Assembly: GCA_903910705.1 (NCBI GenBank)
Contig: CAIWAN010000104.1
Span: 2,453 to 66,452 of the forward strand
DNA length: 64,000 nucleotides
Source of the DNA: an uncultured Candidatus Marinamargulisbacteria bacterium
GTDB lineage: Bacteria; Margulisbacteria; Riflemargulisbacteria; GWF2-35-9
Direction of reading: 5' to 3'
In this document: positions 2,765 through 28,444 of the stretch, in pieces
Layout of the letters: the number at the start of each line of letters is the position of its first letter
How positions within the stretch are numbered: position 1 is the stretch's first letter
Position numbers and translations under genes: made by a program
The notes under the pieces: model-generated
The model's input: the letters and a program-made list of their open reading frames with translations, nothing else
Database searches by the model: none
What the model was told of the DNA's origin: nothing

Positions 2765-5224
2765 ATGTCAGAACAATTAGAATTACTATCCGCTCAAAAT
2801 ATTAAACCCATAAACATAGAAGATGAAATGAAATCCTCTTACATCGATTACGCGATGAGCGTTATCGTTGGACGAGCCCTTCCTGATGTTCGAGATGGAC
2901 TAAAACCTGTTCATCGCCGGATTTTATATGCGATGTATGAACAAGGGATTACACCGGATAAACCGCACAAAAAAAGTGCTCGTGTTGTGGGCGAAGTATT
3001 AGGTAAATATCACCCCCACGGTGACTCAGCTGTTTATGAAGCGATGGTTCGAATGGCTCAACACTTTTCGCTTCGATATCCCTTAGTTGATGGTCAAGGT
3101 AATTTTGGGTCGGTTGACGGAGATAGTGCGGCGGCGATGCGATATACCGAATCCAGAATGAGCAAGATTGCTCTTGAATTACTCGAAGATATTGATAAAA
3201 ATACCGTCGAATTTACTCCCAACTTTGATGAATCCCTAGAAGAGCCCACCGTTATGCCCGCAAAGCTACCGAATTTGCTTATCAACGGAAGCTCTGGAAT
3301 AGCCGTGGGTATGGCAACGAACATTCCCCCGCATAATTTGACCGAGATTTGTGATGCGATCATAGCCTTGATCGAAGAACCGAACCTAACAGCCATGGAG
3401 TTAATGCACTATGTTAAAGGTCCCGATTTCCCAACGGGTGCTCAAATTTGTGGTCAACGAGGCATCATAGAGGCCTATCAAACCGGTAAAGGGATTATTA
3501 AAGTACAAGCCAAACATCATTTTGAGGAAAACAAATCAAAAAAACGTCGAGCCCTCATCATTACCGAGCTTCCCTATACGGTAAACAAAGCCATGCTTAT
3601 TCTAAAAATAGCTGATTTGGTTAAGTCAAAAGCGATTAATGGAATTGCCGATCTACGTGATGAATCTGATCGAAAAGGAATGCGTATTTACATAGAATTT
3701 AAGCGAGAAGCAAATGAGAGTGTTGTCCTGAATCAGCTCATTAAACATACTCAAATGGTTGTAAGTTATGGCATCAATATTGTAGCACTAGACAATGGAC
3801 AGCCCAAAACACTTGGGCTAAGAGAGTTGTTAACGAAGTACATTGAGCATCGAATAATCGTCGTTAAACGCGCTGTTGAGTTTGATCTTAAGAAAGCCCA
3901 AGCGAGAGCCCATATTCTGGAGGGATTAAGGATCGCTCTAGATAACCTTGATCGGGTCATTGAGTTGATTCGCTCAAGTAATACAGGCGAAGAGGCCAGA
4001 GAAGCCTTGATCCGCAACTTTGAACTTTCCGAGATTCAAGCTCAGGCCATTTTGGATATGCGACTTCAACGATTAACAGGTCTAGAACGTGAAAAAATAG
4101 AACTTGAACACAAGGAACTCTTAGAACGAATCGCAGATATGCTAGATATACTTGCCAAGCGAGAGCGAATACTCGATATCATCAAAGCCGATGCCGTTTA
4201 TTTAAGAGAGCGTTTTGGTGATAAGCGTCGGACAGAGTTGACAACGGATATTGAAGACCTTAACTATGAAGACTTGATCGAAGAAGAAACGGTTGCTGTA
4301 TTTATTACAAAATTTGGTTTTGTAAAACGATTGTCCGTCGATAATTTTCGAAACCAACTCCGAGGTGGCCGAGGGATTGGCGGGATGGTAACACGAGAGG
4401 GCGACATTATTGAGAAAGTCTTCATTGTTTCCACACATAGTACGCTCGTATGTTTCACCTCCAATGGAAAAGCCTACAAAACAAAAGTCTATAATATTTC
4501 AGAAGAATCACGGTATAGCAAGGGATCCAATATTTCGAGTATTTTAAATCTTCAAGAAAATGAACTGGTGACCACCGGAGTGATTATGGATAATTTTGAT
4601 GCAGAAAATCAATACTTTTTTATGACCACCCTTCGAGGTGTTGTGAAACGAGTCAAAGTAACAGACTTTAAGAATATCCGAACGAATGGGATTATTGCTA
4701 TCAACCTTGATGAGGGAGATACGTTGCGATGGGTTGAAATTACGGATGGCAACAAAGATGTCATGTTGCTAAGCCGAGATGGTATGGTTATCCGGTTCAA
4801 AGAAGACCAAGTCAGGCCAATAGGTCGTGCTGCACGAGGGGTTCGAGGGATGCAACTTAAGGGTAAAGATCGCATTGTAGATAACAGTGTCCGGTCTGTT
4901 GATGAGGAAAGCTCAAGCCTGCTTATCATTGCTGAGTCAGGGATAGGTAAGCGGATTAATATTAAAGAATTTCGTCTTCAAAAACGCGCGGGTCTTGGCC
5001 TTCGAAGTATTAAGTTAAGGGTCGGTGACTTCCTAGCGGGTGGAGCCATTGTAACGAATGACGATGAAGTCATCATCGTCAGCGAAAAAGGAACCGTGTC
5101 TCGTCAAAGCGTCAAACCTATTTCAAAGCAAGGTCGTGCTGCACGAGGCGTTCGGGTTCAAAAACTAGACAGTAAAGACAAGGTTGTTGCGTTTGCAAAA
5201 CTCCTTGATGAAGAAAAAGAGTAG
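2765..5224 (+). CDS. gyrA: DNA gyrase subunit A
   Basis: N-terminal [28 protein letters not shown] with the catalytic Tyr region. GyrA-box-like [11 protein letters not shown]-terminal beta-pinwheel repeats. 819 aa. Confidence 0.95.
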
Positions 5225-6325: not shown

Positions 6326-6517
6326 TAGCTCAAAGCCTTGGCGTTATACGTTGAATCAACAACCCAACACGTTGATATTGGTGAATTATACGTGTTTCGG
6401 TTTCGGAAAGAATCAACCCATCCTTTATTTTATTCAATATGGGGGTTATTTTAGGTTGAAGCTCTTTGTGAACATCATTGAAGGCCGCTTTAGCTTGCGT
6501 TAGGCTGCTCAATGCGG

Positions 6518-7210
6518 TTAATGGATGAGTTTAACGGCTTTTAAGGGCCAAATAACCGCCCAAGCCTTACCCAAAATCTTGTCCTCAGGAACCACGCCCC
6601 AAACGCGACTATCACTGCTTCGAGGACGATTATCCCCCATAAAGAAATAGTGATGAGAAGGGATTTTTATAGGCCCGAAGTCGGAGTAGTCATTGTTTTT
6701 TACTTGCGGTTCATGCAGAAGTTGATCATTGATAAAGACATCCCCGCTGCGTATCTCAAGCTTTTCACCCGGAAGACCGATCAAGCGTTTAACATATCGT
6801 TCACCGATAAGTTGCGGGGGCTCAAAGTAGACGGGCTCCAATGCTTTATTGTCATTGAAATAGTATTCACGTCCCAAAACAGGGATTTCTGGAGGAAAGA
6901 AGACAATCACATCAAAACGATGAATGGGAGCCTTAAACGGAACGATGTATTTGTTGTTAGAGAAAGGCAAATGATTGTTGTATAGGGGGTTGTGGGCGAC
7001 AAGCATAATGGATTTTTTCATTTTTGCATTGTAAAGAGGGTTTTGAATGCCGTAATAAAAGCGATTAACGATAATACGATCTCCAACATTGATATTGGGG
7101 ATCATTGACCCCGTAGGGATCAAGTGGATTTCGATAATGAACTCTTTAATGAAAACAGCAATAGCGATGGCCATCAGAATGGCGCCAACATTTTGCCAGA
7201 ACTTTTTCAT
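6518..7210 (-). CDS. lepB: signal peptidase I
   Basis: SPase I boxes IPTGSMIPNINVGDRIIVNRF (catalytic Ser) and GDNRPRSSDSRVWGVVPEDKILGKA. Start taken at MKKFWQNV (7208-7210), right after the rplS stop. The ORF track's longer N-terminal extension is probably not translated. Confidence 0.8.
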   Translation of the reverse strand: MKKFWQNVGAILMAIAIAVFIKEFIIEIHLIPTGSMIPNINVGDRIIVNRFYYGIQNPLYNAKMKKSIMLVAHNPLYNNHLPFSNNKYIVPFKAPIHRFDVIVFFPPEIPVLGREYYFNDNKALEPVYFEPPQLIGERYVKRLIGLPGEKLEIRSGDVFINDQLLHEPQVKNNDYSDFGPIKIPSHHYFFMGDNRPRSSDSRVWGVVPEDKILGKAWAVIWPLKAVKLIH

Positions 7211-7220
7211 CAGCGAATGA

Positions 7221-7580
7221 CTAATTGAATCGCGGGTCGCGAGCTTTGATTTTGCTGGCTTTTGATCCAAGAATGCCTCTGAGATAGAAGAGTTTAGCGC
7301 GACGGGCTTTACCTTCGCGAAGCACCTTAAGCTCAGCAAGCAAGGGAGAGTTGATGAAATATGTTTTTTCAACGCCAACGCCTCCAACAACCTTACGAAC
7401 CGTAAAGTTTCTGTCGATCCCGCCATTTTGAATTTTAGTAACTACGCCTTCAAACCCTTGAATACGTTCTTTTTTGCCTTCTATAACTTTAAACCCCACC
7501 TTAACCGTATCACCAATGCGGATATCGGGTAGATCAGAACGGAGTTGATCTTGGGTAACCTCAGCGACTATTGAATTCAT
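7221..7580 (-). CDS. rplS: 50S ribosomal protein L19
   Basis: MNSIVAEVTQ...RIGDTVKV...GKKERIQGFEGVV is a canonical L19 sequence. A GGAGGA RBS sits 6 nt upstream of the ATG at 7578-7580. Confidence 0.9.
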   Translation of the reverse strand: MNSIVAEVTQDQLRSDLPDIRIGDTVKVGFKVIEGKKERIQGFEGVVTKIQNGGIDRNFTVRKVVGGVGVEKTYFINSPLLAELKVLREGKARRAKLFYLRGILGSKASKIKARDPRFN

Positions 7581-9897: not shown

Positions 9898-9974
9898 TGG
9901 TGCGCCTGAAGGGATTCGAACCCCCGGCCTCTTGATCCGTAGTCAAGTGCTCTATCCAGCTGAGCTACAGGCGC
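9898..9974 (-). tRNA. tRNA-Arg (anticodon ACG)
   Basis: The reverse complement folds as a cloverleaf: acceptor GCGCCTG/CAGGCGC, D-arm GCTC...GAGC, anticodon stem CTTGA/TCAAG with loop CTACGGA, T-loop TTCGAAT, 3' ACCA. Confidence 0.85.
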
Positions 9975-10088
9975 ATCCTTATGATTGCGGGCTTCATTAT
10001 AGCTTAAAACATAAAACCCGTAAAACCATATACAAAGGCAAATCATTTTGGGTAAAATCGAAACAATACAAAGAAAGAAGGCTTCGCC

Positions 10089-10874
10089 ATGGAATGGAAT
10101 GTATTACTTGCGCCAATTATGCTGTTATTGATTCTATTTATCGGCGTTCCGGAAATAGTCAGGTCACCCCAAGAGTATCTTCATGTTCCAGCGTTAATGA
10201 TCGTTTTGGGTGGTTGTGTTTTCGCCATGTTATTTGGGACCAAATTTAAGAATACATGGAGTCTATTAAAGGCTTATTCGTTTATTGTTATTCCTCAAAA
10301 ACGAATGTCACCACCAGAGGCTATACGGATTATCGTTGAGCTCTCTCGAATTGCATTAACACAAGGGAAAGCGGCCTTGATCCCTGAAATAGAACGGATC
10401 AAAGATCCCTTTCTTCAATATGGGATTTCTTTGGTGGTAGAAAAGTTCCAAGAGCCCTTTATTCGAGCGGCTTTATACAATAGCATCGAAGAAATGCAAG
10501 AACGACATATGACCATCGTGGGTATAAATAGAAACACTGCCGTCGTTGCGCCTATTGCAGGTATGGTGGGAACCATTGTCGGACTCATTCAGGTATTAAG
10601 GAACATGGCCGATCCCTCGCAACTGGGTAAGGCCATGGCCTTAGGACTTATTGCAACCTTTTATGGTGGATTTCTTTCGGGTATGGTGTTTACACCTATC
10701 GCGCAAAAATTAAAGATCATGAGCGATGAAGAGGTTGTATTAAAGCGCATGATGGCCGAGGGGATTTTATTTATTTCAAAGGGCGAAGTTCCGATTAAAG
10801 TTGAAAAATATTTACTTAGTTATCTTCACATGGGTGATGTTAATAAGGCAGCTTTAAGCAATCAATCCGTATGA
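10089..10874 (+). CDS. motA: MotA/PomA-family stator (proton channel) protein
   Basis: 261 aa with 4 predicted TM segments. The C-terminal TM3-TM4 region IAGMVGTIVGLIQVLRNMADPSQLGKAMALGLIATFYGGFLSGMVFTPIAQKL is typical of the MotA/TolQ/ExbB superfamily. Overlaps the downstream motB-like gene by 4 nt. Confidence 0.8.
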   Translation: MEWNVLLAPIMLLLILFIGVPEIVRSPQEYLHVPALMIVLGGCVFAMLFGTKFKNTWSLLKAYSFIVIPQKRMSPPEAIRIIVELSRIALTQGKAALIPEIERIKDPFLQYGISLVVEKFQEPFIRAALYNSIEEMQERHMTIVGINRNTAVVAPIAGMVGTIVGLIQVLRNMADPSQLGKAMALGLIATFYGGFLSGMVFTPIAQKLKIMSDEEVVLKRMMAEGILFISKGEVPIKVEKYLLSYLHMGDVNKAALSNQSV

Positions 10875-11605
10875 GCGGTAGAAAAAAACACGCAGAGGAG
10901 CATGGCGAAAGCCCCATAGGTTTTATTATGTTTGGGGACTTGATGTCCCAGCTTCTATGCTTTTTTATTTTATTGTTTGTTTTTGCCTCACAATATGTTT
11001 CAAAAACACAAGGAACGACCTATGAGGATTTTCTTAAAAAGATAAGCGAGAACTTCAAAAAAGTGGTTGATGAAAAGCAAAAACCTCAAAGCCAGAAGCA
11101 AACGAAAGAGAGCGAATCTGTAAAACAGGAGACGGCAACGGATGCCAAAACAAAGATCGCCCAACAAATCCAGAAACTGGTAAATGATGAAAAACTAACC
11201 GAATATGTAAGTGTAATTGTGGAGGAAAAAAAGGTTCGAATTGTATTAAAACAACCTGTTCTATATGATTCAGGCTCGGCAGAACTAAAACCAGAAGCGG
11301 GATCAATCCTTGCCGATATTGGTGCGATCATTCAGAAGACGCGTAACCCCATTGATATAGAAGGACATACTGATAATATGCCGATCCATACAAGCAAATA
11401 TGATTCGAACTGGGACTTGTCTTTCGATCGGGCCTATTCCGTTATTAAGTTTATGGTTAAAACCGCCGGCATTTCACCGTTGCGCATGAAAACCGTGGGG
11501 TATGGAGAATATCGACCTCTTGCCCCCAATGATAGTGCTGAGAATCGTAGCAAGAATCGACGGATCGAAATCAATGTATTATTTAACGAATCGTTTCGAA
11601 ATTAA
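10871..11605 (+). CDS. motB: MotB-family stator protein with OmpA-like peptidoglycan-binding domain
   Basis: Single N-terminal TM helix carrying the conserved Asp (FIMFGDLMSQLLCFFILLF). C-terminal OmpA_C-like domain (HTDNMPIHTSKY...FDRAYSVIKFMV...RRIEI). 244 aa is MotB size rather than TolR/ExbD size. Confidence 0.8.
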   Translation: MSGRKKHAEEHGESPIGFIMFGDLMSQLLCFFILLFVFASQYVSKTQGTTYEDFLKKISENFKKVVDEKQKPQSQKQTKESESVKQETATDAKTKIAQQIQKLVNDEKLTEYVSVIVEEKKVRIVLKQPVLYDSGSAELKPEAGSILADIGAIIQKTRNPIDIEGHTDNMPIHTSKYDSNWDLSFDRAYSVIKFMVKTAGISPLRMKTVGYGEYRPLAPNDSAENRSKNRRIEINVLFNESFRN

Positions 11606-13902
11606 TCTTTTACCTCTTTTTGAATGGGGGTAAAGGACAACGCATCGGCCTTGATCCCAACATTAACGATAGAGTGGTCTGGGATCTTTCGATCAATAAG
11701 CAGGTCAGCAACAGCATCTTCGATAGAATCCTGAATCATTTTTCTAAGTGGCCTAGCCCCTTTATTGGCTTTGTACCCTTTATCGATAATCCAGTTTTTC
11801 GCTGGCAAATTAAGCTTAATGGTGATGTCTTTGCTTTTTAATCGGTGATTAACATCAGCGATGAAAAGATCCATTATTTCTCGAAGACTGTCTTTACTGA
11901 GGGCCTTAAAAATAATAATGTCATCGATACGGTTGATGAACTCAGGACTAAAAGACTCCTTCACTTCAGCAAGGATCTTTTCCTTCATTCGACCATAGTC
12001 TTCTTTTTCGTCCACGTTGGAGTTAAATCCAATGCTTTGATTGCTTTCGATGGTCTTAGCACCCACGTTGGAGGTCATAATGATAATGGTGTTTTTGAAG
12101 TCAACCATTTTCCCTGTTGAGTCGGTCAGTCGTCCATCGTCCATAACCTGTAAAAGTAAATTATTGACTTCAGGATGAGCCTTTTCAATTTCATCAAACA
12201 ATACGATCGAATAAGGTTTTTTCCTGACGGGTTCAGTGAGAAGCCCGCCTTCGTTATAACCGACGTAACCCGGAGGAGATCCAACTAGGCGAGAAATCGT
12301 GTGTTTTTCGGTGTATTCACTCATATCAATGCGTACAAAGGCATCTTCTCGACCAAAAACATAGAGCGCCAACTGTTTGGCCATCTCTGTCTTACCCACA
12401 CCACTAGGCCCAAGAAATAAGAACGAGCCAGTAGGTCGTCCAGGATCTTTTAGCCCTGCCTTTGAGCGTTTAATCGCCTTTGCTAGGGATTCGATCGCTT
12501 CGGTTTGGCCAATGACTTTTTTAGCGAGGTCACTAGCAATGTGTTTGAGGCGAGAGGCTTCAGATTCGGATAGATCACGAAGGGGTACCCCCGTCCACGT
12601 TGAGACGACCGTGATGATAGACTCGCGAGTTACAGTCACTGTTTTTTCTTTGCCGGCTTTTTTCTTGTTTAGTCGACTGGCTTCAAGCATTTCTGTTGAG
12701 GCGGCTTCATCAATCAAATCAACCGCTTTGTCCGGCAGTTGTCGATTTGTAATATATCGAGTGGAATAATATACAGCCGCTTCAAGAGCGTCGTCCAATA
12801 TCTCAACTTTGTGATAGTCTTCATAGCGCTTTCGGATTCCAAAAAGAATGTGCATGGTGTCCTCTTCGGAGGGAGGATCGATCATGATAGGCTGAAATCG
12901 ACGTTCAAGAGCGGCATCGCTTTCAATGCTTTTTCGGTATTCGTTTAAGGTTGTTGCCCCGATGCATTGGATTTCCCCTCGAGCGAGAGCAGGTTTCAAC
13001 ATATTGGCAGCGTCGAGAGCGCCCTCTGAATTGCCGGTTCCAATGATGGTATGGATTTCGTCTATGAAAAGAATGGTTTGTCGATCGTTTTTAATTTCAT
13101 CGATTATTTTCTTGATCCGTTCCTCAAATTCACCCCGAAATCGAGTCCCTGCGACTAAAAGCCCCAAATCAAGGGTAATGACCCGCTTGTTAAGCAGGTT
13201 GGGTGGAATTTCTCCATTCACGATCCGTTGGGCTAACCCTTCGATGATCGCTGTTTTACCCACACCCGCTTCACCCGTTAATACAGGGTTGTTTTTATTG
13301 CGCCGACTGAGAATTTGAAGGATACGTTTTACCTCAAATTCACGTCCGATAACAGGATCAAGCTTCCCTTCTTTGGCCAGTTGGGTTAGGTCAAGTCCGT
13401 AGAGATCAAGCGTAGGGGTTTGTTGACGTGACGTACTACCTTCTTCCTCAGATGCTTCAGCGTAATTTTCACCCAAGATGTCCAGAATGGCTGTGCGAAT
13501 CTGAAGAATATCGATGCTTGCTTCGAGAATGATCGCTGTAATGGCAGGAGAGGTGTCTTTTAGCACAGAAAGAAGGAGGTGTTCTACGCTTACATGGCTA
13601 TGACCCAACTGCCTTGCTTCATCCCATGCTTGAGAAAGAGTGACTTTGACTTGGGGTGAAAAGGGGATATTGTCAAGCTTGAGCGAGGATTTTTGTGTTT
13701 GCAGATGTTCATTGATGATGCTCCGAAGAATAGTCGGGTCAACTTTAATTTTTTGAAGGGCGGTTTGAATAATGGTGTCTTCAACTTTTAGGAGTCCATA
13801 AAGTAGGAGCTCGTTATTGATATAGGGAATCTTAAGCTTTTTGGCTTTCTCTTGGGCATACATAATGACCTGAATCGCTTTTTGAGTGAATCGTGAAAAC
13901 AT
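11602..13902 (-). CDS. ATP-dependent Clp protease ATP-binding subunit (ClpA/ClpC family, double AAA+)
   Basis: Clp_N repeats at the N-terminus. Walker A motifs [15 protein letters not shown] (D1) and [15 protein letters not shown] (D2). Short D1-D2 linker without a UVR motif, i.e. ClpA-like. 766 aa. Confidence 0.85.
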
Positions 13903-14944: not shown

Positions 14945-16432
14945 ATGCGACGATCAATTATTAAATGGGGAAGCCTTGTTGTCATATTTATGACCCTTGC
15001 TTTTTCCCAAAATCTGCAGACCTATCAACAACATATTGAAGAGACCGTTCAATCGGCCCTCGATAGAATGTTGGGCGCAGGTCGATCGATAGTCTATATT
15101 TCTCTCATCTCAGAAGGTAATAAGTGGGAGATAAATTATACAAAAATCCCTGATATTCCCGGAATGTCTGATTATCAAGGAGGCGGAAAAGGCCAAAGTA
15201 CAGTTATGCCCGGTATTCCTTCATTAAAGTTTTTGTCTGGCGGGGGAAATGAGGGGGCGCCTCTTAACTATGAGGTGGTCGAACGTAGTCCGGTTGTCGC
15301 CAATAAAGATGTTGTTATTATTATGGATGCTAAGGTCAAGTTAGGTGAAATAAGAGCCGTACGGCAGTTTATTACTGGTTTTTTGAATTTAGATGAACAA
15401 AAGGGCGACAAGCTCTCAATATTAAAACAAAAATTTACCGATCTTTCGGCCGGTGGAAAAGAATCCATTTCCAAACAAAAACTTACTGCAAAAAACAAAC
15501 TGCCTCTTTCAACGATCATCCTTCTTTTAGTAGGACTTGCAGTTCTAGTTGCTATGCTTGTTCTTGTGTTGAAGTCGATGGGACGAAAAAAAGTAATAGA
15601 GGGATCGTCAGCCGAAACAGCGACGCAATTAGCCAATACGGAGGCCACGATTCCGGAAAAAACGGCTGATGAACTCCGAAAAGAAGAAGAAGATGCGCAA
15701 AAGAAAATGGAAGAACAAAAACTGATAGCCATGCGTAATGAAGTGTTAGGAAATGGGGCCAGATATTTTACTTTTGTTGATGATGAGAACACGCACAAGC
15801 TAAAGTTCTTATTGCAGATCAAAATTGCGCTTCAACAAGCGACACCACGAACGGTTGCGGTTGTTATGAGTTGTTTGCCCTCGAACTTAGCAGCATCAAT
15901 ATTGATTGAGTACCCAGTTAAAATTCAGGCAGAGATCATGAACAATATTTTAACCTTACAGCATTACCCAGAAAATGATCTGAGGCAGTTAGAAGAAGAG
16001 ATTAAGAACAGCATAGACTTTTTGTTTGGTGGAAAATATCGCTTAAAACAGGTGATGGATCAATTGTCAGGCGAGGCAAAGAAGCAGCTTCTTTCTTTGG
16101 TCGCTCGCCAAAACCCACCGATAGCTGATGAGCTTAACACGTTGGTTATTCTTTTTGAAGATATTTTAGAGCTAGATGAAAGCACGGTTGCGCGAATATT
16201 TGGAGATATTGATACCGAGATCATCGCGACATCGTTGGTTCATATGGATTCGGGCTATCAACGAAAAGTTCTCGAAACGCTTCCAAAAGGAGTGCAAGCC
16301 ATGGTAGACCAGTGGTTGAGCTTAAAAGGAAATACGGCCTCTCGAGTTGATGTTGACCAAGCCCGACAAGAAGTTATTCAGTACGCGCAAAATTTAGAAA
16401 AAGAAGGGTTTATTTTGATTAATCATGAGTGA
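14945..16432 (+). CDS. membrane-anchored FliG-like protein with FliF/YscJ-type periplasmic ring-building-motif domain
   Basis: Signal/TM1 MRRSIIKWGSLVVIFMTLAF. Periplasmic region resembles a secretin/FliF ring-building motif (SALDRMLGAGRSIVYISL ... VVANKDVVIIMDAKVKLGEIRAVRQFITGFLNLDEQKGDKLSIL). TM2 LPLSTIILLLVGLAVLVAMLVLVL. The cytoplasmic part has FliG-middle-like (AVVMSCLPSNLAASILIEYPVKIQAEIMNNILTL) and FliG-C signatures (ILFEDILELDE matching the MFxFEDL motif; C-terminus DQARQEVIQYAQNLEKEGFILI matching FliG ...EEAQQKI...RRLEE.GEIVI). Confidence 0.55.
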   Translation: MRRSIIKWGSLVVIFMTLAFSQNLQTYQQHIEETVQSALDRMLGAGRSIVYISLISEGNKWEINYTKIPDIPGMSDYQGGGKGQSTVMPGIPSLKFLSGGGNEGAPLNYEVVERSPVVANKDVVIIMDAKVKLGEIRAVRQFITGFLNLDEQKGDKLSILKQKFTDLSAGGKESISKQKLTAKNKLPLSTIILLLVGLAVLVAMLVLVLKSMGRKKVIEGSSAETATQLANTEATIPEKTADELRKEEEDAQKKMEEQKLIAMRNEVLGNGARYFTFVDDENTHKLKFLLQIKIALQQATPRTVAVVMSCLPSNLAASILIEYPVKIQAEIMNNILTLQHYPENDLRQLEEEIKNSIDFLFGGKYRLKQVMDQLSGEAKKQLLSLVARQNPPIADELNTLVILFEDILELDESTVARIFGDIDTEIIATSLVHMDSGYQRKVLETLPKGVQAMVDQWLSLKGNTASRVDVDQARQEVIQYAQNLEKEGFILINHE

Positions 16433-17255
16433 AAAATCCTTCAATCTTTTTCAGAAGCGAGAAGCTAAATCCCAATCGGTTGACGAAGCATCGAAATCAG
16501 CGGACATCCGAAGTGTTTTTCAAGAAAGTGGCAAGGAGGAGACACTAGCCCTTCAATACTTTAGCTATATAACGAAAGACAATACTTATCATACTGCCCA
16601 TGTGTTAAATAAAATCATCAAAGCGAAGCCCGAAAACTTAAAATATGCCTGCCTCGTTATTTCGTACGTTGACCCTGAGTTAGCGCAACGACTATTAGGG
16701 GAGTTTCCGGATGAGATCCAAGTTCATGTTGTTTCTGAATTGTTATCCTTGATCCAATATAGCAAGGCAGAGATCGAGAATTTTGATAAAATTCTGCGTC
16801 GATTGTTGACCGAACAATTTGGCGGGAAATATGTTGTGGCTAAGCTACTAGAAGAGCTTGATATAGAAAAAAAGATGCTTCTAATGCAAGAGTTCTCTAA
16901 ACGATATCCAGACGCAGCAACTTTATTTAGACGGATCATGATCTTATTTGAGGATCTACTCTCACTAAATGAGGTAAATTATCAGCGAATTTTTTCTGAA
17001 GTATCAAACGAAATATTATCCATGGCTTTTTGCAATCATTCCGTTGAACAACAAACTAGACTCTATAATATTCTTCCAAAAGGGCTAAAAAATATTGTTC
17101 AACAAGGTATAGAGCTTGGAAGGAAAAAATACTCAAGAACTGATATCAATAAGGCTCAACAATATATTATTGAGTACGCAAAACAACTCGAAAAGGATGG
17201 GTTTATTGATCCTATCTTAAAGGATGAAAACGCAAAGCCCCCGACATCAAGCTAG
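16425..17255 (+). CDS. soluble FliG-like paralog (FliG middle plus C-terminal domains)
   Basis: 276 aa. Contains ILFEDLLSLNE (the MFxFEDL-type motif) and the C-terminal DINKAQQYIIEYAKQLEKDGFI. Overlaps the upstream gene by 8 nt (ATGAGTGA), which suggests translational coupling. Confidence 0.55.
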   Translation: MSEKSFNLFQKREAKSQSVDEASKSADIRSVFQESGKEETLALQYFSYITKDNTYHTAHVLNKIIKAKPENLKYACLVISYVDPELAQRLLGEFPDEIQVHVVSELLSLIQYSKAEIENFDKILRRLLTEQFGGKYVVAKLLEELDIEKKMLLMQEFSKRYPDAATLFRRIMILFEDLLSLNEVNYQRIFSEVSNEILSMAFCNHSVEQQTRLYNILPKGLKNIVQQGIELGRKKYSRTDINKAQQYIIEYAKQLEKDGFIDPILKDENAKPPTSS

Positions 17256-17328: not shown

Positions 17329-20300
17329 GTGAGAAAATCTTCATGTCATTTCAGGGTAAGGTTCTTCGCACTTGTCGTGGGAATATTGCCGTTTGCCTTC
17401 ACCACGATTACAGACCTTTCCTTTTTTTCAGGAGGCACACAAACACAATATGTTCACGTGATGCAAAATCAGTCTATTGGGTTTAAAGATAGTGCAAACC
17501 AAGTAACCATTAATCTTTCGGATGAGATTCAATTTAAATTGAATTATTCCACAAAGCAATACACAGTATTAAAAGGAAGCGATTGGTTTGATGGAAACCC
17601 AACGATCACTTGGAACAATTTGGCCGAAATTAGTATTAACTACCGCCTAAAATGGACGAACCCTTTTGCTCAAAATATGCCAATTCTCGTGACGATAAAT
17701 GATAACGAAGCCTCGATTACGACATCAATCTTGACGTATAATCAAGAATTTGTTCTTACGGCTTTAACACTTAATGCTGATCAGCAATTCTTTGTCCAAG
17801 ATGCAAACGGGCCTTGGATAAAAGGGGGCATTGGGTCAGGAGAAGGTGTTGTTTGTTTGGGGAACCTCGCCTATAAATATGATACAACTTTGCATCCCTT
17901 GAAAGATGTATCCATGTGTCTATATTTTGACGGAGTGCCTGATGGCTCGCAAGTAAATGTGGGAACAGATGGAAAATTCCAATTTAATAATTTTTTGGTT
18001 CCTATATCTGCAACCGGAGTGAGCAAGAACTGCGAAATTAGGGTTGATTTGGCTGGCGCTATCGGAAGCGCAATCCTTTCATCAACAGTCATACCCAATA
18101 CCTTTAATGTTCAAATTGATAATATGCCACCAACATGGACTGAAACGAGCCTTATCCTTGTATCTGATAATAATTATGAGAGTCAAGGTCGACTGAAGCC
18201 CGACGATGGGTATTATGGCCAACTGACAGTTTCGGTTAAAGTAGACAAATTTAATCTGGTTACAGATAATGCTGGCGCAGGAGTCTCCACGATTCTTTCC
18301 TTTCGTGCCGAACAAGTCACGGTCGAAGGGCTAGACGTAACCACGAGCATTCAAACACGTGAAGGTGTTCGTGACATCCAAGTACTCATTTTTGATAAAG
18401 TCCATAATTCTGCAAGCTTGAGTGTACGCGTAAGTGTTGATGTCACTCCGCCTAGTTTGTTTTCTGTTTATTTGGGGCAGGACAATGATACTACAATCAA
18501 TCAAACCCTTCCTGCCGTTGGGTGGTTTAATGATGAAACCGTGAGTTTTTCGTGGACGACTCCTGCTGATTTTTCCCTTCGAGAATGGCCCTATCAAGTA
18601 AAAAACGACCCGTCTCCAAACTGGTCAGCTGAACAGGAAGGCATTTTATCAGATAATATGTTCCAGTTGACGCGAAATACAAATCAACTTTACATCGAAG
18701 CCGGAGGAAATCTTGCCAAAACCATTAAGGTTAGAGCCGTTGATCGTGCGGGCAATATTCGAGAGGCGAGTACAACCGTTTTTGTTGATAACACACCACC
18801 GACACTCAATGTTTTTAGGCTAAAACCTGATTTAACGCTTGAGGCTGATAGCCTAGAACTTCCCGAGGCAACGCCAAATATCTGGTACAACAATGGGGAT
18901 GAAGTCAATTGGACGTGGTCAGCAGAGGATAATGGTGAACTCCCGCAGAAACCCTATGCGTATTATTATAATAAGGGAAATCAGAATGTATTGACCTCAG
19001 ACTTTACCAATTTATCGGACATCATTATTCCTTCTGATGAAGCCCCAACAGGGAACATGTTAACCCTTTTAATTCGAGACAAAGCGGGGAATGTTGCCAT
19101 TTCAACGAAAAATGTTTTCGTGTCCGAAACGGCTCCCATCATGAGCTATAAAGACATTCTTTTTTTGTCCGACATGACGGATAATGGAGGGGATGGGGTT
19201 CTTGCTGAATCCCTCTGGTATGATCAAACGACATTAGATTTTGTCACAACGGTAAATCTTCAAAGCTTCTCCGCTCCCCTTTCCAAAATTTATTTCAAGC
19301 GGAGCATTGATAGCACGAAGAATATCTTGGATATATCAACCGTGCAGACGATAACTATTTCGAGCTTTGAGATCATATCCAATAGTCGAACAGATATAAC
19401 GTTTGAATTTGTGGATCGAGCGGGTCGTGGAAGCCAAGTTTTTAAAAATGTTGAGTCAACAACAATCGTGCCTATTAATCTAAATGCTGTCCTTGTCAGC
19501 GACAAAGACAGCAGTTTACAGCAAGATGGGATAGATCCCGAGCCAGGTTATTATGATAGTCCAACGATTAGTATCACTTGGCAAAAACCAAATTATTGGG
19601 GACGGCTTCGCGACCAACCGTACTCAACTAATATTAATGGAGAAGGCTGGGGAACCGAGTTCGGGACAGAGGGCCTGCAGCTATCTCTTACGCCAAACCA
19701 TGCTTTTTCGTTAATCATTCGTGCAGCAGATCGCGCTGGAAATGTGGTCACGAATCAACTTTTTGTGACGGTTGATGTCGAGGCCCCAACTGGTTCTTTT
19801 GAGTTTATTATTTCAGAGGATGTCCCCCATAATGGGGGGGTAACCCCTGACATCGGTTGGTATTCTAATCATTGGATCAAAGGTCAATTTCTGTCTGAAA
19901 ATGTGACGGATTTTTTTGGTCTTCGTGAAGCCCGATATTTTGTAAAAAATTTAGAGGTACCTTATGGGCAGGGATCATCCTCTTCTTTAAATGTTGAGAC
20001 TTTTTCTAATGAACGAGGCAGTGTTATCAATTATGTTTCGGGTGCAATTGCCGATCATGCGGGCAATATAATTTCACTCCAAAAACCGGTGTATGTTGAC
20101 ATGACCTCCCCTGGAGCTTTTTCTACAGAGATTTTGCCAGATGCGACTGACAATGGTTCCGATGGATTTTTCCCAGAGGTTGGCTGGTATGATGAAGAGG
20201 CGGTCAATGTTAAGTGGATGCATTCCAATGATGATGCGCAGTTGGCGGAAAAACCTTATAGACTTTCCAGCACGATGCGAGATTGGACCCCGTTCCAACT

Positions 20301-23300
20301 GGCACCTTTTTATGACGGACTTCCTGTTTCTGAGGGTGGCGATATGACGCGAGATGTATATGTTCAGGTCAGAGATAAAGCAGGTAATCTAACAACAGAA
20401 AGTATGACGATAAGAATTGATATTACCCCTCCTGAGATTCTGACGTTTAATATTCTTAATCAAGCACAAACCGTGGTTACTTGGGCTGAAAATAATGGAG
20501 CGGTCTGGCTCGATCAAAATTATTCTCTTCCTCTTCCATCTTGGTATAACACGTCAAACGTTACAATAGCATGGGTAACACCCTCGGAGAATGGGCAGTT
20601 AACGGATCGCCCCTATCGATATCGAGCGAAGTACGGACAAACATCTTTCTCAGAGTGGGTAAGTGGCGATGTGTTTTCTGCTGATATTCACGTATCAGCT
20701 AATGAAAATTCGCCTAATATAATTTATTTTCAGGCCCTAGATCGGGCAGGGAACTTGGCGGTTATAACTCGTTCGATCAACGTCGATTTCTCGCCCCCAT
20801 CAATGAGTGTTCAATATGTGGCGGTAAGCAACGATGTAATCAGAGAGTTTATCCGACCTTATGTCACAACCGGAGACGTTCTTTGGATAACCTTAAATAG
20901 CCAAGAAGTTCTTATTGTCACACCAACGCTTGTTGTTAATAATGGGGTTTATCCCTACGACTTTGTTGAATTTGTTGCGCTAGAACGAGCGTCCGATTAT
21001 GTCTGGACAGCGAGCATCGACCTAAAAAAGATAAATGGAGCGGATGGGTACTTCCTCTATCGTGACGGATCCTATCAATTGGATGTCAAAGCATATGATA
21101 ATGCAGGGAACAAGACCAATACCCTTAATGGGGATGTGTCTTTTGTTGTGAAAAATGACTCTGCACCACCAGGAGAAAATTTTAGTCTCTATGAGTATAT
21201 TGATCTTACACGTAGTGATACCTATACAAGGCATGAAATGGTCGAATTTTCTGTGACGATCGACTCTAAAATCGCCGAGCTCTATCTAACTGAACGGGCA
21301 GACCTCTCGACTTTTGAGAGAGTTAAGTCGTCACAGTCCTCTTTTCAAAGAATATCTAGGGATGCAGCTAAACTCTATACGTTTCAGCCTGACCTGAATA
21401 CGAATGAAGTTATGGATGGCATGAAAACAGTATTTTTATGGACAGTCCTTGAAAACGGGATCGGCTCCGATGTATCGGTAAGTGCAAGGATCCGATATGA
21501 TCATACGGCACCTTTCGTTAGTATTGAGCCTGATTATATGGCTCTTCAAGGTAGAACAGATGGGGTTTCTCTGTCGATAGGAACGTATCATTGCAGGATG
21601 ACACTAAGTTCAAATATTGTCGGGTATAGAGAGGAGGCGATTGAAACGCCCTCGTGGAAACTGCTTCTTCCTGCCGTAGGTGCAACGTTTATAACGGTTG
21701 ACCTAGTGCCCAGCTTAGAAGATCAATCCGATCGAAGCAAGTGGGTCGCTACGTATAATTCAGCTCTCTCAACGGCCAGTGGAAATGCCATATTCCTCAT
21801 AGCGGTAACCGATAATGCCTTAAACCCTACAAACCAAATAAAAGAAGGGGAACGCTTTAACATTGACTTACAAGCAGCAGGGAATCCTTCTTTTTCGGTA
21901 AGATCATTAGATGGTCGACAAGGGTATACTCGGTTCTTAACGGTGAATATTGAGATTCAGAATGATAGTTCTTCGACGACATACAATTATTATAAAATAA
22001 CGGAGGGCTTGCGTTATCGTCCAAGCTTTGAAGCCGTGAATACCCCCTGGGAAAGTTCGCCAACCATTGTAAGTTTTAGAATTGATGAATCGTTCCCACC
22101 AGATGAAGTTCTTGAAGGAGCGAAAACGATTTATGTCTGGAGTAGAATTAACTTTTACCTCAACCCTGAGATCATCGAAAGGCGTATCACTTATGACAAA
22201 ACCCCCCCCAGCCTCAATATTCTCGTTGCGCCTTATCTAAATAAGGCAGACAGTTCAGTCCCAGAATCCTTAAGAGTCACAATGTCGGTAAGCGAAGAAC
22301 TAGAAACAACAAATAGTCAGCTTCTCTTATTGAAAGATGAGAGCAGAAGTACACTCAGTACCTCTAATTGGGTTTTTGACAAGAAAAGTGGAGGTGTTTA
22401 TACCTATGTATCAACCCTAGATATACTCGGAGCGAACAAGTTTACTAATATATCAATTCAAACGATGCTTAGTGATTGGGCAGGCAATACAACGAACCAC
22501 ACACAGGCTGTTCGCCAATTGCTTTCCATTAAAGAACTTAAAGACGAGGTTCCTTCTGCAGCTTCCTTTGTAGAGCAAGGAAAACCCGACTTTCTGGTGA
22601 TGTCTTGTGTGCTTTCAGCGAATGATTTGGCTATTCACTTGCGGGGAATACGGGTTCAGTCAGCTGGATCATATCAGCCCATCGATTTTAATAATTTCAA
22701 GGTGTTTTTAGATGGGAATAATGATGGGCAATTCAATTATGATTCTGGATATGGGTTTGATTCTCTCAAAGGAATGAGTTCAGGTGGAATTGATCAGACG
22801 GGCATTGTTTCAATTTCATTTCTTAGTGAAGAAATGATCCCAAGCAATTCTTCAAAACGTTTTTTTATTGTTGCTGATGTCAGCGTTGGGGCGGTTCAAC
22901 GGGATACCTTTACGATGAAGTTTTTATCATATAACGCGTTTGAAGTTGCAGATAACGAAATGGTTGACTATGCAAATGCACCCAACGAATTTCGAACAAA
23001 ACAGATTATGATCGTTAAGACGATCAGTGGGGTATATTTGGTTCCGCAAATCGGCTCACAAAGTTCCGCCAACAGGGTCACACAAAATGTAAATCGAGGT
23101 GGATCCAACCAGCTTCTTAATAAGTTTACTCTGTATACAGACAAAGGCGTTGCTCTCTGGAGCGGAATAAAACTCCGATATAGCGGAACCATAGGAACCG
23201 AACACCTTAATCTTTCCTTGTATAAGGATACAAATCTAAATGGCCTTTTTGAACTAGAAGCGGATGGTCAGGTTAGCTATCCCAGTAATCGGTTTGAGGT

Positions 23301-26604: not shown

Positions 26605-27362
26605 GGTGGTGGGATACCCATTGTCATGTAACGGATGCTCGTTTTGAGGATGTTTACTCATTACTAGCTCAATCGAAAGCGGCGGGGGTAGGGACGGTTA
26701 TTGTGCCCTCTACAGACCTAGAAGATGCAAAAAAGGCGTTAGTTTTAAGTGAATCACATAACCTTTATTTTGCTGCAGGCGTTCATCCCCATGAGGCAAC
26801 AATCCTTTCATCGGAGACACTCGACGGTTTTGATCGGATTCTTTCACATCAACAATGCGTGGCCGTGGGTGAGATCGGCTTAGATTATCATTATGAGGGG
26901 ATCGAGAAAGCGACACAGAAGAAAGTATTAATCCAAATGATGGAGCTTGCTGTTTTAAAGAGGTTACCGGTGATTCTACATACACGAGACGCCGAGGCAG
27001 ATGTTTTCGCCACAGCGACTGAATTTCCTTTGGTCGGAGGGGTCTGCCACTCCTATACCGGCGAGGTTTCCTTGCTTCGAAAGTATTTGGATGCGGGTTA
27101 TGACGTTTCATTTAATGGGATGCTGACGTTTAAAGGGAGCGAGAATATTCGTGAGCTTGCTCGGTTCGCACCTCTTGACCGTATTGTGCTGGAGACGGAT
27201 GCGCCGTATTTGGCGCCGACTCCCCATAGAGGTAAGATGAATGAGCCGGCCAATATCCCGTTGATCGCAAAGAGTCTGGCTGAGATCAAATCAATCCCTC
27301 TTGACACTATCGCTAGCCAAACGTCTCATAATGCAGCCCGTCTTTTTTCAAAAGTCCGATGA
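26601..27362 (+). CDS. tatD: TatD-family metal-dependent hydrolase/DNase
   Basis: WWDTHCHV start, VGEIGLDYHYE motif and TatD metal ligands. 4-nt overlap with metG. Confidence 0.85.
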   Translation: MRWWDTHCHVTDARFEDVYSLLAQSKAAGVGTVIVPSTDLEDAKKALVLSESHNLYFAAGVHPHEATILSSETLDGFDRILSHQQCVAVGEIGLDYHYEGIEKATQKKVLIQMMELAVLKRLPVILHTRDAEADVFATATEFPLVGGVCHSYTGEVSLLRKYLDAGYDVSFNGMLTFKGSENIRELARFAPLDRIVLETDAPYLAPTPHRGKMNEPANIPLIAKSLAEIKSIPLDTIASQTSHNAARLFSKVR

Positions 27363-28444
27363 ATACGGTCATTCTTTTTCATCCAAAAAAAGGACTTTTC
27401 TTTGCGGCGATGACGCCACAGCAGATGGAGCGATGGCAACACTTTAAAGGGTTTGTCCTTTTTTCTTGGGAATATCGGCAACCCAATGCGGATGACCTGA
27501 TATCGTTTCTTCAGTATCTCTCTGTCAGCCTTTTAGGAAATCCAGATTGGTCACGTTTGATCAACGATTTTGTTAAGACCCATCAGGGGATTCAATTTCG
27601 AAGGCTACTCCGAGACGTAAGCACTGGGCTTCAGCAAGGCGTGTCTTTTGACAATGCGTTACGACAATTTCTGCCCCCTCAGTTGATCACAGCCGTTCTT
27701 TCAGCCCAGAAAAGGGGGCAATTATCTGAGGAGATCTCAACGATTATTGAGCACTATCGAAAAGAGACCGAGGAATACGCTAAGCGTAGATCTAAGCAAG
27801 TTTACCCGTTAACACTGGCTCTAGGCCTCGTTGGGCTTATCGCTTTGGTGGATGTTCAATTTGTTCCTGTATTGCGATCCCTTTTTGATAGCTATGGACT
27901 AAAGCCACCGTTTATCTTGAGTTTATTTAATCTTAAGGTACAGCTTGGGATGATTGGTGTATTGTTTGGACTAGGCGTGATGGCTCGTTGGGTTTATCAA
28001 CGATTGTCCTTTCATCAAAAAGCCCTTGTCCCGATACTGGGGACCATATCGATCCTTCAGCTTCATCAACATCTTCTCGATGCGTATCAAGAGTCTTTGA
28101 TTCGTGAATGCTCCTACGATTTAGTATTAGAGGAGCGGGTCGCGTCGGAAAGAAACTCCTTTATCAAGTTTGGTTTAAGCACCATTTCGGGGCGACTGAA
28201 GCAAGGGAAATCCCTTTCCTTGGCGATCAAAGATATTCCATCGATACGTGGATGGGTGGGTGGATGGGTTCGGGGTGGCTCTTTGAGTGCCTATCAACAG
28301 CAACTTCGACAAAAGGAAGCAGCGTTGCGAGATCGCCTTCAGGCCCTCCTTGTCGCGACCTTAATTGCCCTCGTCTCGCTCGTAATCACCGGTTTAGGGT
28401 TTCTAATTACGCTGCCGCTTCAATATGCGGATAAGCTGATCTAA
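27359..28444 (+). CDS. polytopic inner-membrane protein, divergent GspF/PilC (T2SS-F/T4P platform)-like
   Basis: 361 aa. N-terminal cytoplasmic segment with a T2SSF-like motif LLRDVSTGLQQGVSFDNALRQFLPPQLITAVLSAQKRGQLSEEIS, followed by TM helices. A second, weaker repeat (LSTISGRLKQGKSLSLAIKDIP) precedes the last TM. The assignment rests on architecture, not on strong sequence identity. Confidence 0.35.
   Translation: MNTVILFHPKKGLFFAAMTPQQMERWQHFKGFVLFSWEYRQPNADDLISFLQYLSVSLLGNPDWSRLINDFVKTHQGIQFRRLLRDVSTGLQQGVSFDNALRQFLPPQLITAVLSAQKRGQLSEEISTIIEHYRKETEEYAKRRSKQVYPLTLALGLVGLIALVDVQFVPVLRSLFDSYGLKPPFILSLFNLKVQLGMIGVLFGLGVMARWVYQRLSFHQKALVPILGTISILQLHQHLLDAYQESLIRECSYDLVLEERVASERNSFIKFGLSTISGRLKQGKSLSLAIKDIPSIRGWVGGWVRGGSLSAYQQQLRQKEAALRDRLQALLVATLIALVSLVITGLGFLITLPLQYADKLI

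Follow-up and report, generated by a model that had tools for sequence, protein, structure and literature searches.

A divergent flagellar-type MotAB stator pair and its probable partner, a predicted natural FliF-FliG fusion, in a member of the Marinamargulisbacteria

To what kind of motor does a flagellar stator belong when no flagellum is encoded around it? The question is raised by a motA-motB gene pair in a 64-kb stretch of DNA (hereafter, the window) on contig CAIWAN010000104.1 (GenBank assembly GCA_903910705.1, positions 2,453 to 66,452) from an uncultured "Candidatus Marinamargulisbacteria" bacterium of the Margulisbacteria, an uncultured sister phylum of the Cyanobacteria. The motA gene (window positions 10089 to 10874, plus strand) codes for a 261-residue stator A subunit of the flagellar type (PomA/MotP/MotA-like) with four transmembrane (TM) segments, and motB (10871 to 11605, plus strand) codes for a 244-residue B subunit with one TM segment that carries Asp23, a plug, and an OmpA-type peptidoglycan-binding domain. 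An earlier inspection of this DNA, made from the letters alone (the sequence-only reading), had placed a 4-TM MotA and a MotB between the rpsP operon with a tRNA-Arg gene and a clp gene, and every detail of this that can be checked is correct. It had also seen no hook, rod, export, or filament gene in the 64 kb. This is borne out by Pfam scans, which covered the window open reading frames (ORFs) of at least 150 amino acids that appear to be real genes and detected no flagellar genes besides motAB and two FliG-like genes, and by tblastn searches of the window with 14 flagellar proteins, taken from the organism's own flagellar cluster on another scaffold or from relatives, which gave no match at E ≤ 0.01. 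We consider it likely that motAB supplies the ion-driven stator of a flagellar-type motor that is highly diverged, has its genes scattered through the genome, and belongs to a marine Marinamargulisbacterium. As a protein the stator is of an ordinary kind, whereas its rotor partner is unusual. Behind this explanation stand homology, domain architecture, conserved gene linkage, and co-occurrence of the genes in one metagenome-assembled genome (MAG), all of which are observed.

The product of motA contains the MotA_ExbB domain (Pfam, 1.8e-21) and, according to its hydropathy profile, four hydrophobic segments (residues 1 to 27, 29 to 54, 149 to 171, and 182 to 201). Among NCBIfam models, PomA, MotP, and MotA rank first (~4e-43), and the top seven are all flagellar. 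A phmmer search against the Protein Data Bank (PDB) returns Vibrio PomA as the best match (4e-38, residues 30 to 249, nearly full length), followed by Paenibacillus, Bacillus, Clostridium, and Aquifex-type MotA (1e-26 to 1e-32) and Campylobacter MotA (3e-13); the matches at E ≤ 1e-13 are all PomA or MotA. The solved stator that the window MotA resembles most is therefore PomAB, the Na+-driven polar stator of Vibrio alginolyticus (PDB 8BRD/8BRI). An AlphaFold (AF2) model of MotA, with a mean predicted local distance difference test score (pLDDT) of 81, has cytoplasmic helices at residues 56 to 67, 75 to 92, 94 to 101, and 107 to 117 between TM2 and TM3 and a continuous helix from 122 to 171 that makes an unbroken TM3. 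Equivalents of PomA Pro151 and Pro199 are kept in all members of the MotA alignment, and those of Thr158 and Thr186 are kept in the window MotA, with Ala at the equivalent of Thr185.

The MotB protein matches the Pfam families MotB_plug (5.5e-8) and OmpA (3.1e-20); MotS, MotD, and MotB rank first for it in NCBIfam. It aligns over its full length with MotB of Clostridium sporogenes (1.1e-37) and Bacillus subtilis (2.3e-31), whose solved MotAB structures (PDB 6YSF and 6YSL) comprise subunits of similar sizes, with MotA matching at about 1e-30. The TM segment is closest to that of V. alginolyticus PomB (FGDLMSQLLCFFILL versus FADLMSLLMCFFVLL). The sequence-only reading had picked out a TM Asp in the motif FGDLMSQL together with the OmpA domain, and both stand: this residue, Asp23, aligns with the channel Asp of Bacillus and Clostridium MotB, and the alignment with PomB (PIGFIMFGDLMSQLLCFFILLFVFA versus PLWMGTFADLMSLLMCFFVLLLSFS) puts it on PomB Asp24. 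The window MotB shares the plug and the OmpA domain with PomB and is shorter (244 versus 315 residues). By these comparisons the pair is confirmed as flagellar-type stator subunits. As for the coupling ion, the TM segment of MotB looks most like that of the Na+-type PomB, and the organism is probably marine. Because the equivalent of PomA Thr185 is Ala, although those of Pro151, Pro199, Thr158, and Thr186 are kept, we treat Na+ as a candidate ion; residues 158, 185, and 186 make up the Na+ site of PomA. The MotA proteins that are encoded in an operon with FliG-like genes in some relatives (operon-type MotA, described below) have Thr at all three of these positions, whereas MotA proteins of the window type have Ala in the middle one, and the coupling ion may differ between the two types of stator.

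Two FliG-like genes lie downstream of motAB in the window. FliG-like1 (14945 to 16432, plus strand) codes for a 495-residue protein with FliG_M (1.7e-12) and FliG_C (9.3e-15) domains, and FliG-like2 (16425 to 17255, plus strand), which overlaps it by 8 bp, codes for a soluble paralogue of 276 residues with FliG_C (4e-15) and FliG_M (1.2e-6). They are followed by a gene for a giant protein of 2576 residues (17329 to 25059, plus strand). In the window, clpC, hup, and ssb stand between motAB and the FliG-like genes, 3.3 kb downstream. The same arrangement, with motAB between tRNA-Arg/rpsP and clpC and an operon of FliG-like1, FliG-like2, the giant protein, and metG, recurs at two other loci, L001 and L014. 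The alternative arrangement is seen at L009/L016, L017 (GWF2_35_9), L018, and L019 (Termititenax sp.), where clpC (on the minus strand), hup, and ssb precede FliG-like1, FliG-like2, MotA, MotB, and the giant protein, the last five genes being tightly packed on the same strand in these four other Margulisbacteria species. Because of this contiguous same-strand cluster, the view that motAB functionally belongs with the FliG-like genes 3 kb away is strongly supported by gene order; the proposal of the sequence-only reading that these genes supply the other half of a torque-generating interface is supported too.

The two placements of motAB are complementary: loci with motAB beside clpC have no operon copy, and at L017, where the pair is part of the operon, the slot on the clpC side measures only 284 bp. 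Homologues are annotated as "Candidatus Margulisbacteria," and when GTDB genomes, one for each species, were scanned with the FliG-like1 alignment, nine loci came up, every one of them in Marinamargulisbacteria, Riflemargulisbacteria (including GWF2_35_9), or Termititenax. In a neighbor-joining tree that took in PomA and four MotA proteins from flagellar operons of other phyla, MotA proteins of the window type, the operon type, and a third, L003 type group together as one clade in 200 of 200 bootstrap replicates. Recent horizontal gain of the window-type motAB from another phylum was considered and rejected on the basis of this single clade. Each MotA subtype adjoins, in at least one locus, a gene for a TM-anchored protein with the FliG middle and C-terminal domains; L005a is the exception. 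The association of this MotAB lineage with membrane-anchored FliG proteins thus appears old and robust, because the MotA proteins form one clade and the L003 motAB again lies beside such a gene.

That L003 gene (412 to 3228, minus strand), 1.4 kb from a motAB of the window's clade, codes for a TM-anchored protein of 938 residues with SLH and TPR regions followed by the FliG middle and C-terminal domains. It exemplifies a second membrane-anchored FliG architecture of 855 to 938 residues with SLH domains, TPR repeats, and the two FliG domains, found at L003 and in protein P0183; in the latter, the match also spans the RBM3-like region described next.

The rotor candidate FliG-like1 has, from its N to its C terminus, a hydrophobic signal or anchor, a periplasmic domain resembling FliF RBM3 (residues ~24 to 165), a TM helix (~183 to 214, from hydropathy), a low-complexity charged linker, and the FliG middle and C-terminal domains. 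An alignment of 26 homologues delimits a periplasmic region of ~140 to 160 residues with an invariant PGIPSL(K/R)F motif. The AF2 model of residues 1 to 235 shows an alpha-beta-beta-(disordered insertion)-beta-beta-alpha-beta arrangement followed by the TM helix; its folded core has a pLDDT of ~80 to 86, and the mean of 64.6 means moderate confidence overall. When this model was compared with the PDB using Foldseek, matches 1 to 18 were all FliF MS-ring chains (E from 2.5e-7 to 5.6e-5, probability 1.00), mostly annotated as RBM3, S-ring, or collar of Salmonella and Vibrio, with SpoIIIAG and PrgK next. Disorder of the collar insertion in the monomer model keeps the TM-scores, normalized to target length, at only ~0.5. 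The N-terminal half of FliG-like1 thus has the two-TM topology and, as modeled, the periplasmic RBM3/collar domain of FliF. No RBM1 or RBM2 (SctJ-like) domain is present in FliG-like1, the periplasmic part of which is predicted to fold as a single RBM with an insertion. Pfam finds only FliG_M and FliG_C, and no FliG N-domain, in either FliG-like1 or FliG-like2; the latter matches the middle and C-terminal domains of Thermotoga maritima FliG (4.5e-18) and in relatives always follows FliG-like1.

An exhaustive HMMER search of 1.84 billion cluster representatives yielded 347 relatives of FliG-like1 at E ≤ 1e-10, and among the best 150 matches listed, a large share have 470 to 500 residues and align over the full length. 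In two distant members, P0215 and P0249, the Pfam family YscJ_FliF_C is recognized over the full length of the model (2.7e-11 and 5.2e-7) and is followed by FliG_M and FliG_C. The named members of the family are mostly Margulisbacteria, including Marinamargulisbacteria single-cell genomes, with two other labels, "[bacterium]" and a Thermoproteota archaeon. FliG-like1 is thus predicted to be a natural covalent fusion of a FliF RBM3-like domain and TM helix with the middle and C-terminal domains of FliG, as supported by the fold search, the YscJ_FliF_C matches in distant members, and the conserved alignment of 26 homologues.

Fusions of FliF with FliG have precedents. The only natural one that our literature search found described, the others being engineered, is that of Chlamydiaceae, a protein of ~330 residues with an RBM2-like domain, one more RBM, and a cytosolic FliG middle region (Bergeron 2016, PMC4768692). 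It has no SpoIIIAG-like (RBM3) domain, and those bacteria are not thought to be flagellated (PMC4768692). The chlamydial and margulisbacterial proteins share a two-TM FliF-like part, a shortened periplasmic region, a cytosolic FliG-like part, and a non-canonical set of flagellar genes. In contrast to the chlamydial protein, FliG-like1 has a periplasmic part of the RBM3 type and both the middle and the C-terminal (torque) domains of FliG, and motAB is co-encoded with it. Engineered FliF-FliG fusions of Salmonella and Vibrio can assemble into rings (e.g., PDB 8Z4D; PMC11481574). They too link the MS ring covalently to FliG, and 8Z4D matches the N-terminal domain of FliG-like1 structurally and its FliG part by sequence; however, they are laboratory constructs of full-length FliF and FliG, whereas FliG-like1 has no RBM1, RBM2, or FliG N-domain. 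The stators of Clostridium and Bacillus, similar as they are to the window pair, work with a canonical FliF and a three-domain FliG, in contrast to the predicted fusion here. What sets the Margulisbacteria apart is thus a phylum-wide natural fusion of RBM3 with the FliG middle and torque domains, lacking RBM1/2 and the FliG N-domain, together with a second FliG that also lacks the N-domain.

The sequence-only reading implied that the stator stands isolated in an organism without flagellar genes, and this part of it is not supported. A FlgE-like protein, P0138, is encoded on scaffold_510 of ERZ18647913 (locus L028) and occurs in MAG ERZ1426667, ERZ18647568, and ERR4194642. The window's exact MotA comes from precisely the same four sources, namely, ERZ18647913 (BUCK21-1_SAMEA6872892 scaffold_139, 66 kb), MAG ERZ1426667, ERZ18647568, and Logan run ERR4194642, the co-occurrence being judged by sample and analysis identifiers. 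L028 has a GC content of 0.45, and its tetranucleotide composition correlates with that of the window at r = 0.96, compared with 0.67 to 0.90 for other Margulisbacteria loci and 0.88 for the two halves of the window against each other. Three of its proteins pass NCBIfam cut-offs: FlgE-like (TIGR03506, 131.7 versus 70.25), FliN (TIGR02480, 85.3 versus 84.05), and FlhB (TIGR00328, 373.9 versus 349.25). From these data, the organism has hook-type, switch-ring, and export-gate genes (FlgD-like, FlgE-like, FliM-like, FliN, FliOPQR, and FlhB) on a further scaffold. The idea that a nonflagellated genome harbors an orphan stator is accordingly rejected, since L028 is in the same MAG and assemblies. 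The sequence-only reading had itself named a complete flagellar set elsewhere in the genome, with no other motAB, as the finding that would make this an ordinary flagellar stator; that finding is made in part, since a flagellar-type set does exist, in the same four sources.

The FlgE/F/G-like family is specific to Margulisbacteria. On other contigs, its gene heads a cluster of FlgD-like, FlgE-like, FliM-like, FliN/Y-like, FliO, FliP, X, FliQ, FliR, and FlhB genes, and one relative has, in the classical flagellar operon order, a FliK-like gene before this cluster and genes for FlhA and a sigma factor after it. At L001 and L017, a 287-residue FlgE/F/G-like gene lies between ychF and lepB, ~4 kb (L001) and ~9.6 kb (L017) upstream of motA. 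The ychF-lepB slot is filled in these two relatives (L001:5261-6124 and L017:1822-2664) and empty in the window (6326 to 6517), whose organism has the FlgE-like gene on a different scaffold, as the first gene of the export cluster; the hook gene has therefore moved from one flagellar locus to the other over the history of the phylum. Protein X, of 286 to 399 residues, is always encoded between fliP and fliQ in Margulisbacteria export clusters (L028:13918-14952, L021:13852-14712, and L022:13855-15054). It has conserved GNYGV, FTANGGPAR, and PLPGSNYP motifs and, in the L028 copy, a lipoprotein-like N terminus (LLGC); it belongs to no Pfam or NCBIfam family, except for a faint DUF3370 match in one copy, and may belong to the basal body as a component specific to this lineage. 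Another FlgE-like protein, P0074 (35% identical, from TARA samples), has charged, uninformative neighbors and was set aside as coming from another marine lineage. A scan of metagenomes with the FlhA of relative L022, intended to recover FlhA of the window's clade, was saturated by the universal DAMPGKQM motif: of the 80 loci, none had window composition or Margulisbacteria markers except for two L022 relatives.

Flagellins (PMC7018530) and FlgV (PMC11607428) have been reported from Margulisbacteria-labelled genomes; the supplements of PMC7018530 do not list Margulisbacteria entries. Neither Carnevali 2019 nor the paper on the Trichoplax symbiont mentions flagella or motility, and our literature search found no description of a Margulisbacteria motility apparatus. 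The "orphan stator" puzzle is resolved in the ordinary direction, and it is the rotor architecture that is notable for flagellar-motor specialists.

The mechanism that we propose is modeled on the homologous PomAB and MotAB: a MotB dimer would sit inside a ring of MotA subunits, presumably in a 5:2 ratio of MotA to MotB. When the plug opens, the OmpA domain of MotB would anchor the unit to peptidoglycan. The flow of ions past MotB Asp23 in the channel would set the MotA ring turning, and this ring, if it touches FliG as in our scheme, would push the C-terminal domain of the rotor FliG and rotate whatever the motor drives. With FliG-like1 as a fusion, the contact between the FliF tail and the FliG N-domain would be unnecessary, and the ratio of membrane ring to torque ring would be fixed at 1:1, a point that matters for the long debate on how the symmetries of the MS ring and the C ring are related. 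FliG-like2 would be a second, co-encoded FliG without an N-domain.

Several observations weigh against this explanation. The best NCBIfam scores of MotA (147.6 versus the PomA equivalog cut-off of 341) and MotB (162.9 versus 264) fall far short, and so do those of both FliG-like proteins (TIGR00207 scores of 65 and 59 versus 226.7, with matches beginning only at model position ~116 to 127). With scores so far below the equivalog cut-offs, MotA and MotB are, as judged from sequence, divergent members of the flagellar stator family; taken alone, motAB is a new member of that known family. Residues at the rotor-stator interface are changed on both sides. In the window-type MotA, PomA R88 and K89 (E. 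coli MotA R90/E98 corresponds to PomA R88/E96) are replaced by L90 and T91, whereas operon-type MotA has Q together with K/R there. The equivalent of PomA E96, Glu100, is kept only in the window-type MotA clade; other charges near it in the window MotA are R87, K94, E102, and R103. Equivalents of E. coli FliG K264, R281, D288, D289, and R297 are absent from both FliG-like proteins, with the R281/D288/D289 columns occupied by G, Q, and W in FliG-like1 and by G, Q, and G in FliG-like2. Thus, the canonical rotor-stator charge pairs appear to be largely not conserved at aligned positions. FliG-like1 does have K448 and D455, which are nearly invariant, one residue out of register, and at the same 7-residue spacing as R281 and D288; they may possibly form a shifted but analogous charge pair. 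With its canonical MotA-FliG charge pairs rewritten, the motor is a natural experiment on torque transmission. The FliM-binding EHPQ motif is also absent, the aligned residues being ATPR in FliG-like1 and ENLK in FliG-like2.

The organism and its relatives supply further points on this side. No FlhA, FliI, rod, junction, flagellin, or cap genes have been seen so far for the organism, whose whole genome was not searched, and a complete flagellum is unproven. One relative, the Marinamargulisbacteria MAG GCA_964443005.1 (L005), has two motAB pairs (3499 to 5078 and 9959 to 11442) ~5 kb apart, and window-type and operon-type MotA are only 31 to 37% identical, compared with 54 to 62% for FliG-like1.

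The main rival is a machine without a filament. According to it, motAB, the FliF-FliG fusion, FliG-like2, and the giant protein constitute a flagellum-derived, nonswimming rotary machine that has only a single hook-like axial protein left and an export gate that is reduced, and whose rotation moves or tensions the 2576-residue, immunoglobulin (Ig)-repeat surface protein, in gliding, adhesion, or host attachment; the export cluster would be either what is left after reduction or a secretion device in its own right. We regard this as unlikely. The giant protein has a hydrophobic segment at residues 9 to 33 and a C-terminal FlgD-type Ig domain (Pfam FlgD_ig, 2.4e-7); its last 80 residues match the Ig-like domain found in FlgD, the hook-cap protein, with weak NCBIfam FlgD matches at 2487 to 2571 (7e-7). 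In every relative whose contig reaches that far, except L011/L015, a full-length orthologue (27 to 74% identity) is the next gene after FliG-like2 or MotB; on this evidence the giant protein is the conserved last gene of the module phylum-wide, which speaks for such a machine. The same idea draws on the single FlgE/F/G-type family found in Margulisbacteria, with no typical rod or hook paralogue bearing a Margulisbacteria label, on the loss of the canonical FliG and MotA charges and of the FliM-binding motif, and on the absence from the fusion of RBM1 and RBM2, the domains in which a normal FliF accommodates the export gate.

Precedents exist for MotAB-like motors that act with giant adhesins, namely, GldLM with SprB and SiiAB with SiiE. 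In both, as in the Margulisbacteria, a gene for a motor of the MotAB superfamily adjoins one for a giant repetitive secreted protein; in contrast to the window pair, GldL and SiiB are not flagellar-type MotA proteins, and both a FliG-like rotor and flagellar export genes are missing from these systems. What counts against a nonswimming machine is that the FlgD-like, FlgE-like, FliM/N, FliOPQR, and FlhB genes are intact and conserved, in this organism and throughout the phylum, that a relative retains FliK-like, FlhA, and sigma factor genes in the classical operon order, and that the giant protein has a Sec-type N terminus and no demonstrated contact with the motor. The flagellins reported from Margulisbacteria-labelled genomes (PMC7018530) speak against it as well. 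Should it nevertheless be true that the motor drives the co-encoded giant protein and not a filament, this would be a new type of machine in the phylum that is sister to the Cyanobacteria, and a third, independent kind of motor for surface motility or attachment. The FlgD_ig-type domain is common in other phyla as a C-terminal tag of secreted proteins.

A second rival, which we hold to be improbable, makes the window motAB a paralogous stator set for other conditions or another partner, comparable to MotPS or MotCD, with its proximity to the FliG-like genes a by-product of rearrangement. The low MotA identity leaves some room for paralogy of the window and operon types, because FliG-like1 is so much better conserved; the corresponding values are 42 to 50% for MotB and 72 to 75% for ClpC. 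The two pairs on one contig in L005 and the position of clpC, hup, and ssb between motAB and the FliG-like genes in the window also fit a paralogous set. They are offset by the complementary local distribution described above (including the 284-bp slot of L017), by the single clade that holds all Margulisbacteria-type MotA proteins, and by the finding that the nearest MotA outside the window type, that of L003, again sits beside a gene for a TM-anchored FliG protein. One of the L005 pairs is of the window type; the other belongs to a third type, which clusters with MotA from flagellar operons in other phyla, and is flanked by genes for a cNMP-binding protein and a PAS/HATPase protein.

Finally, an energizer of the Tol/Exb/Gld/Zor type unrelated to rotation of a FliG ring, which has the shared Pfam superfamily MotA_ExbB in its favor and nothing more, is extremely unlikely and was rejected, in agreement with the stator-type assignment of the sequence-only reading: no TolQ, ExbB, GldL, or ZorA chain matches the window MotA at E ≤ 1 among all PDB sequences, where the only solved relatives at that level are flagellar stators; MotB, at 244 residues with a plug, an OmpA domain, and full-length alignment to MotB and PomB, differs from TolR/ExbD-like proteins of ~140 residues without OmpA; MotA has an expanded four-helix cytoplasmic domain and not the condensed one of TolQ/ExbB; and Pfam scans of the window reveal no TonB, TolA, Pal, or Zor gene near motAB. 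Four cytoplasmic helices, a continuous TM3, the conserved prolines of TM3 and TM4, and the plug/OmpA combination are the features that set flagellar "FIT"/TGI4 stators apart from Tol/Exb-like transporters (Puente-Lelievre et al., PMC12505986).

As for the motAB locus itself, the two ORFs share 4 bp (ATGA), read directly from the sequence, an overlap that is typical of translational coupling. A purine-rich AAGAAGG immediately 5' of the motA ATG (10089) is a putative ribosome-binding site. In the upstream region (10029 to 10088, plus strand), a consensus scan found a weak sigma-70-like match, TATACA-18-TAAAAT at 10029 to 10058, which we list as a candidate promoter. Farther upstream are the tRNA-Arg(ACG) gene (9898 to 9974, minus strand) and the rpsP-KH-ylqD-rimM-trmD-rplS-lepB operon; downstream of motB and convergent with it is clpC (11602 to 13902, minus strand). 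The longest lepB ORF (6518 to 7426, minus strand; 302 residues) overlaps rplS, while gene callers start downstream (230 residues) on the identical contig, and the first 72 residues of the mechanically derived ORF are unlikely to be translated.

The remainder of the window carries housekeeping genes, including gyrBA, ychF, metG, tatD, proC, sepF, pgk, gap, ftsH, ruvB, and lysS. Near the end of the window (59718 to 63226, minus strand), two neighboring genes code for PAS-domain histidine kinases of 627 and 542 residues; no response regulator was seen within the window. A lone ComGB/PilC-like T2SSF gene (27359 to 28444, plus strand) is convergent with an adjoining 1664-residue ORF (28441 to 33435, minus strand), the product of which displays weak repeated similarity (DUF2460/TIGR02217, E ~1e-6, below cut-offs) to phage distal-tail and tail-tube proteins.

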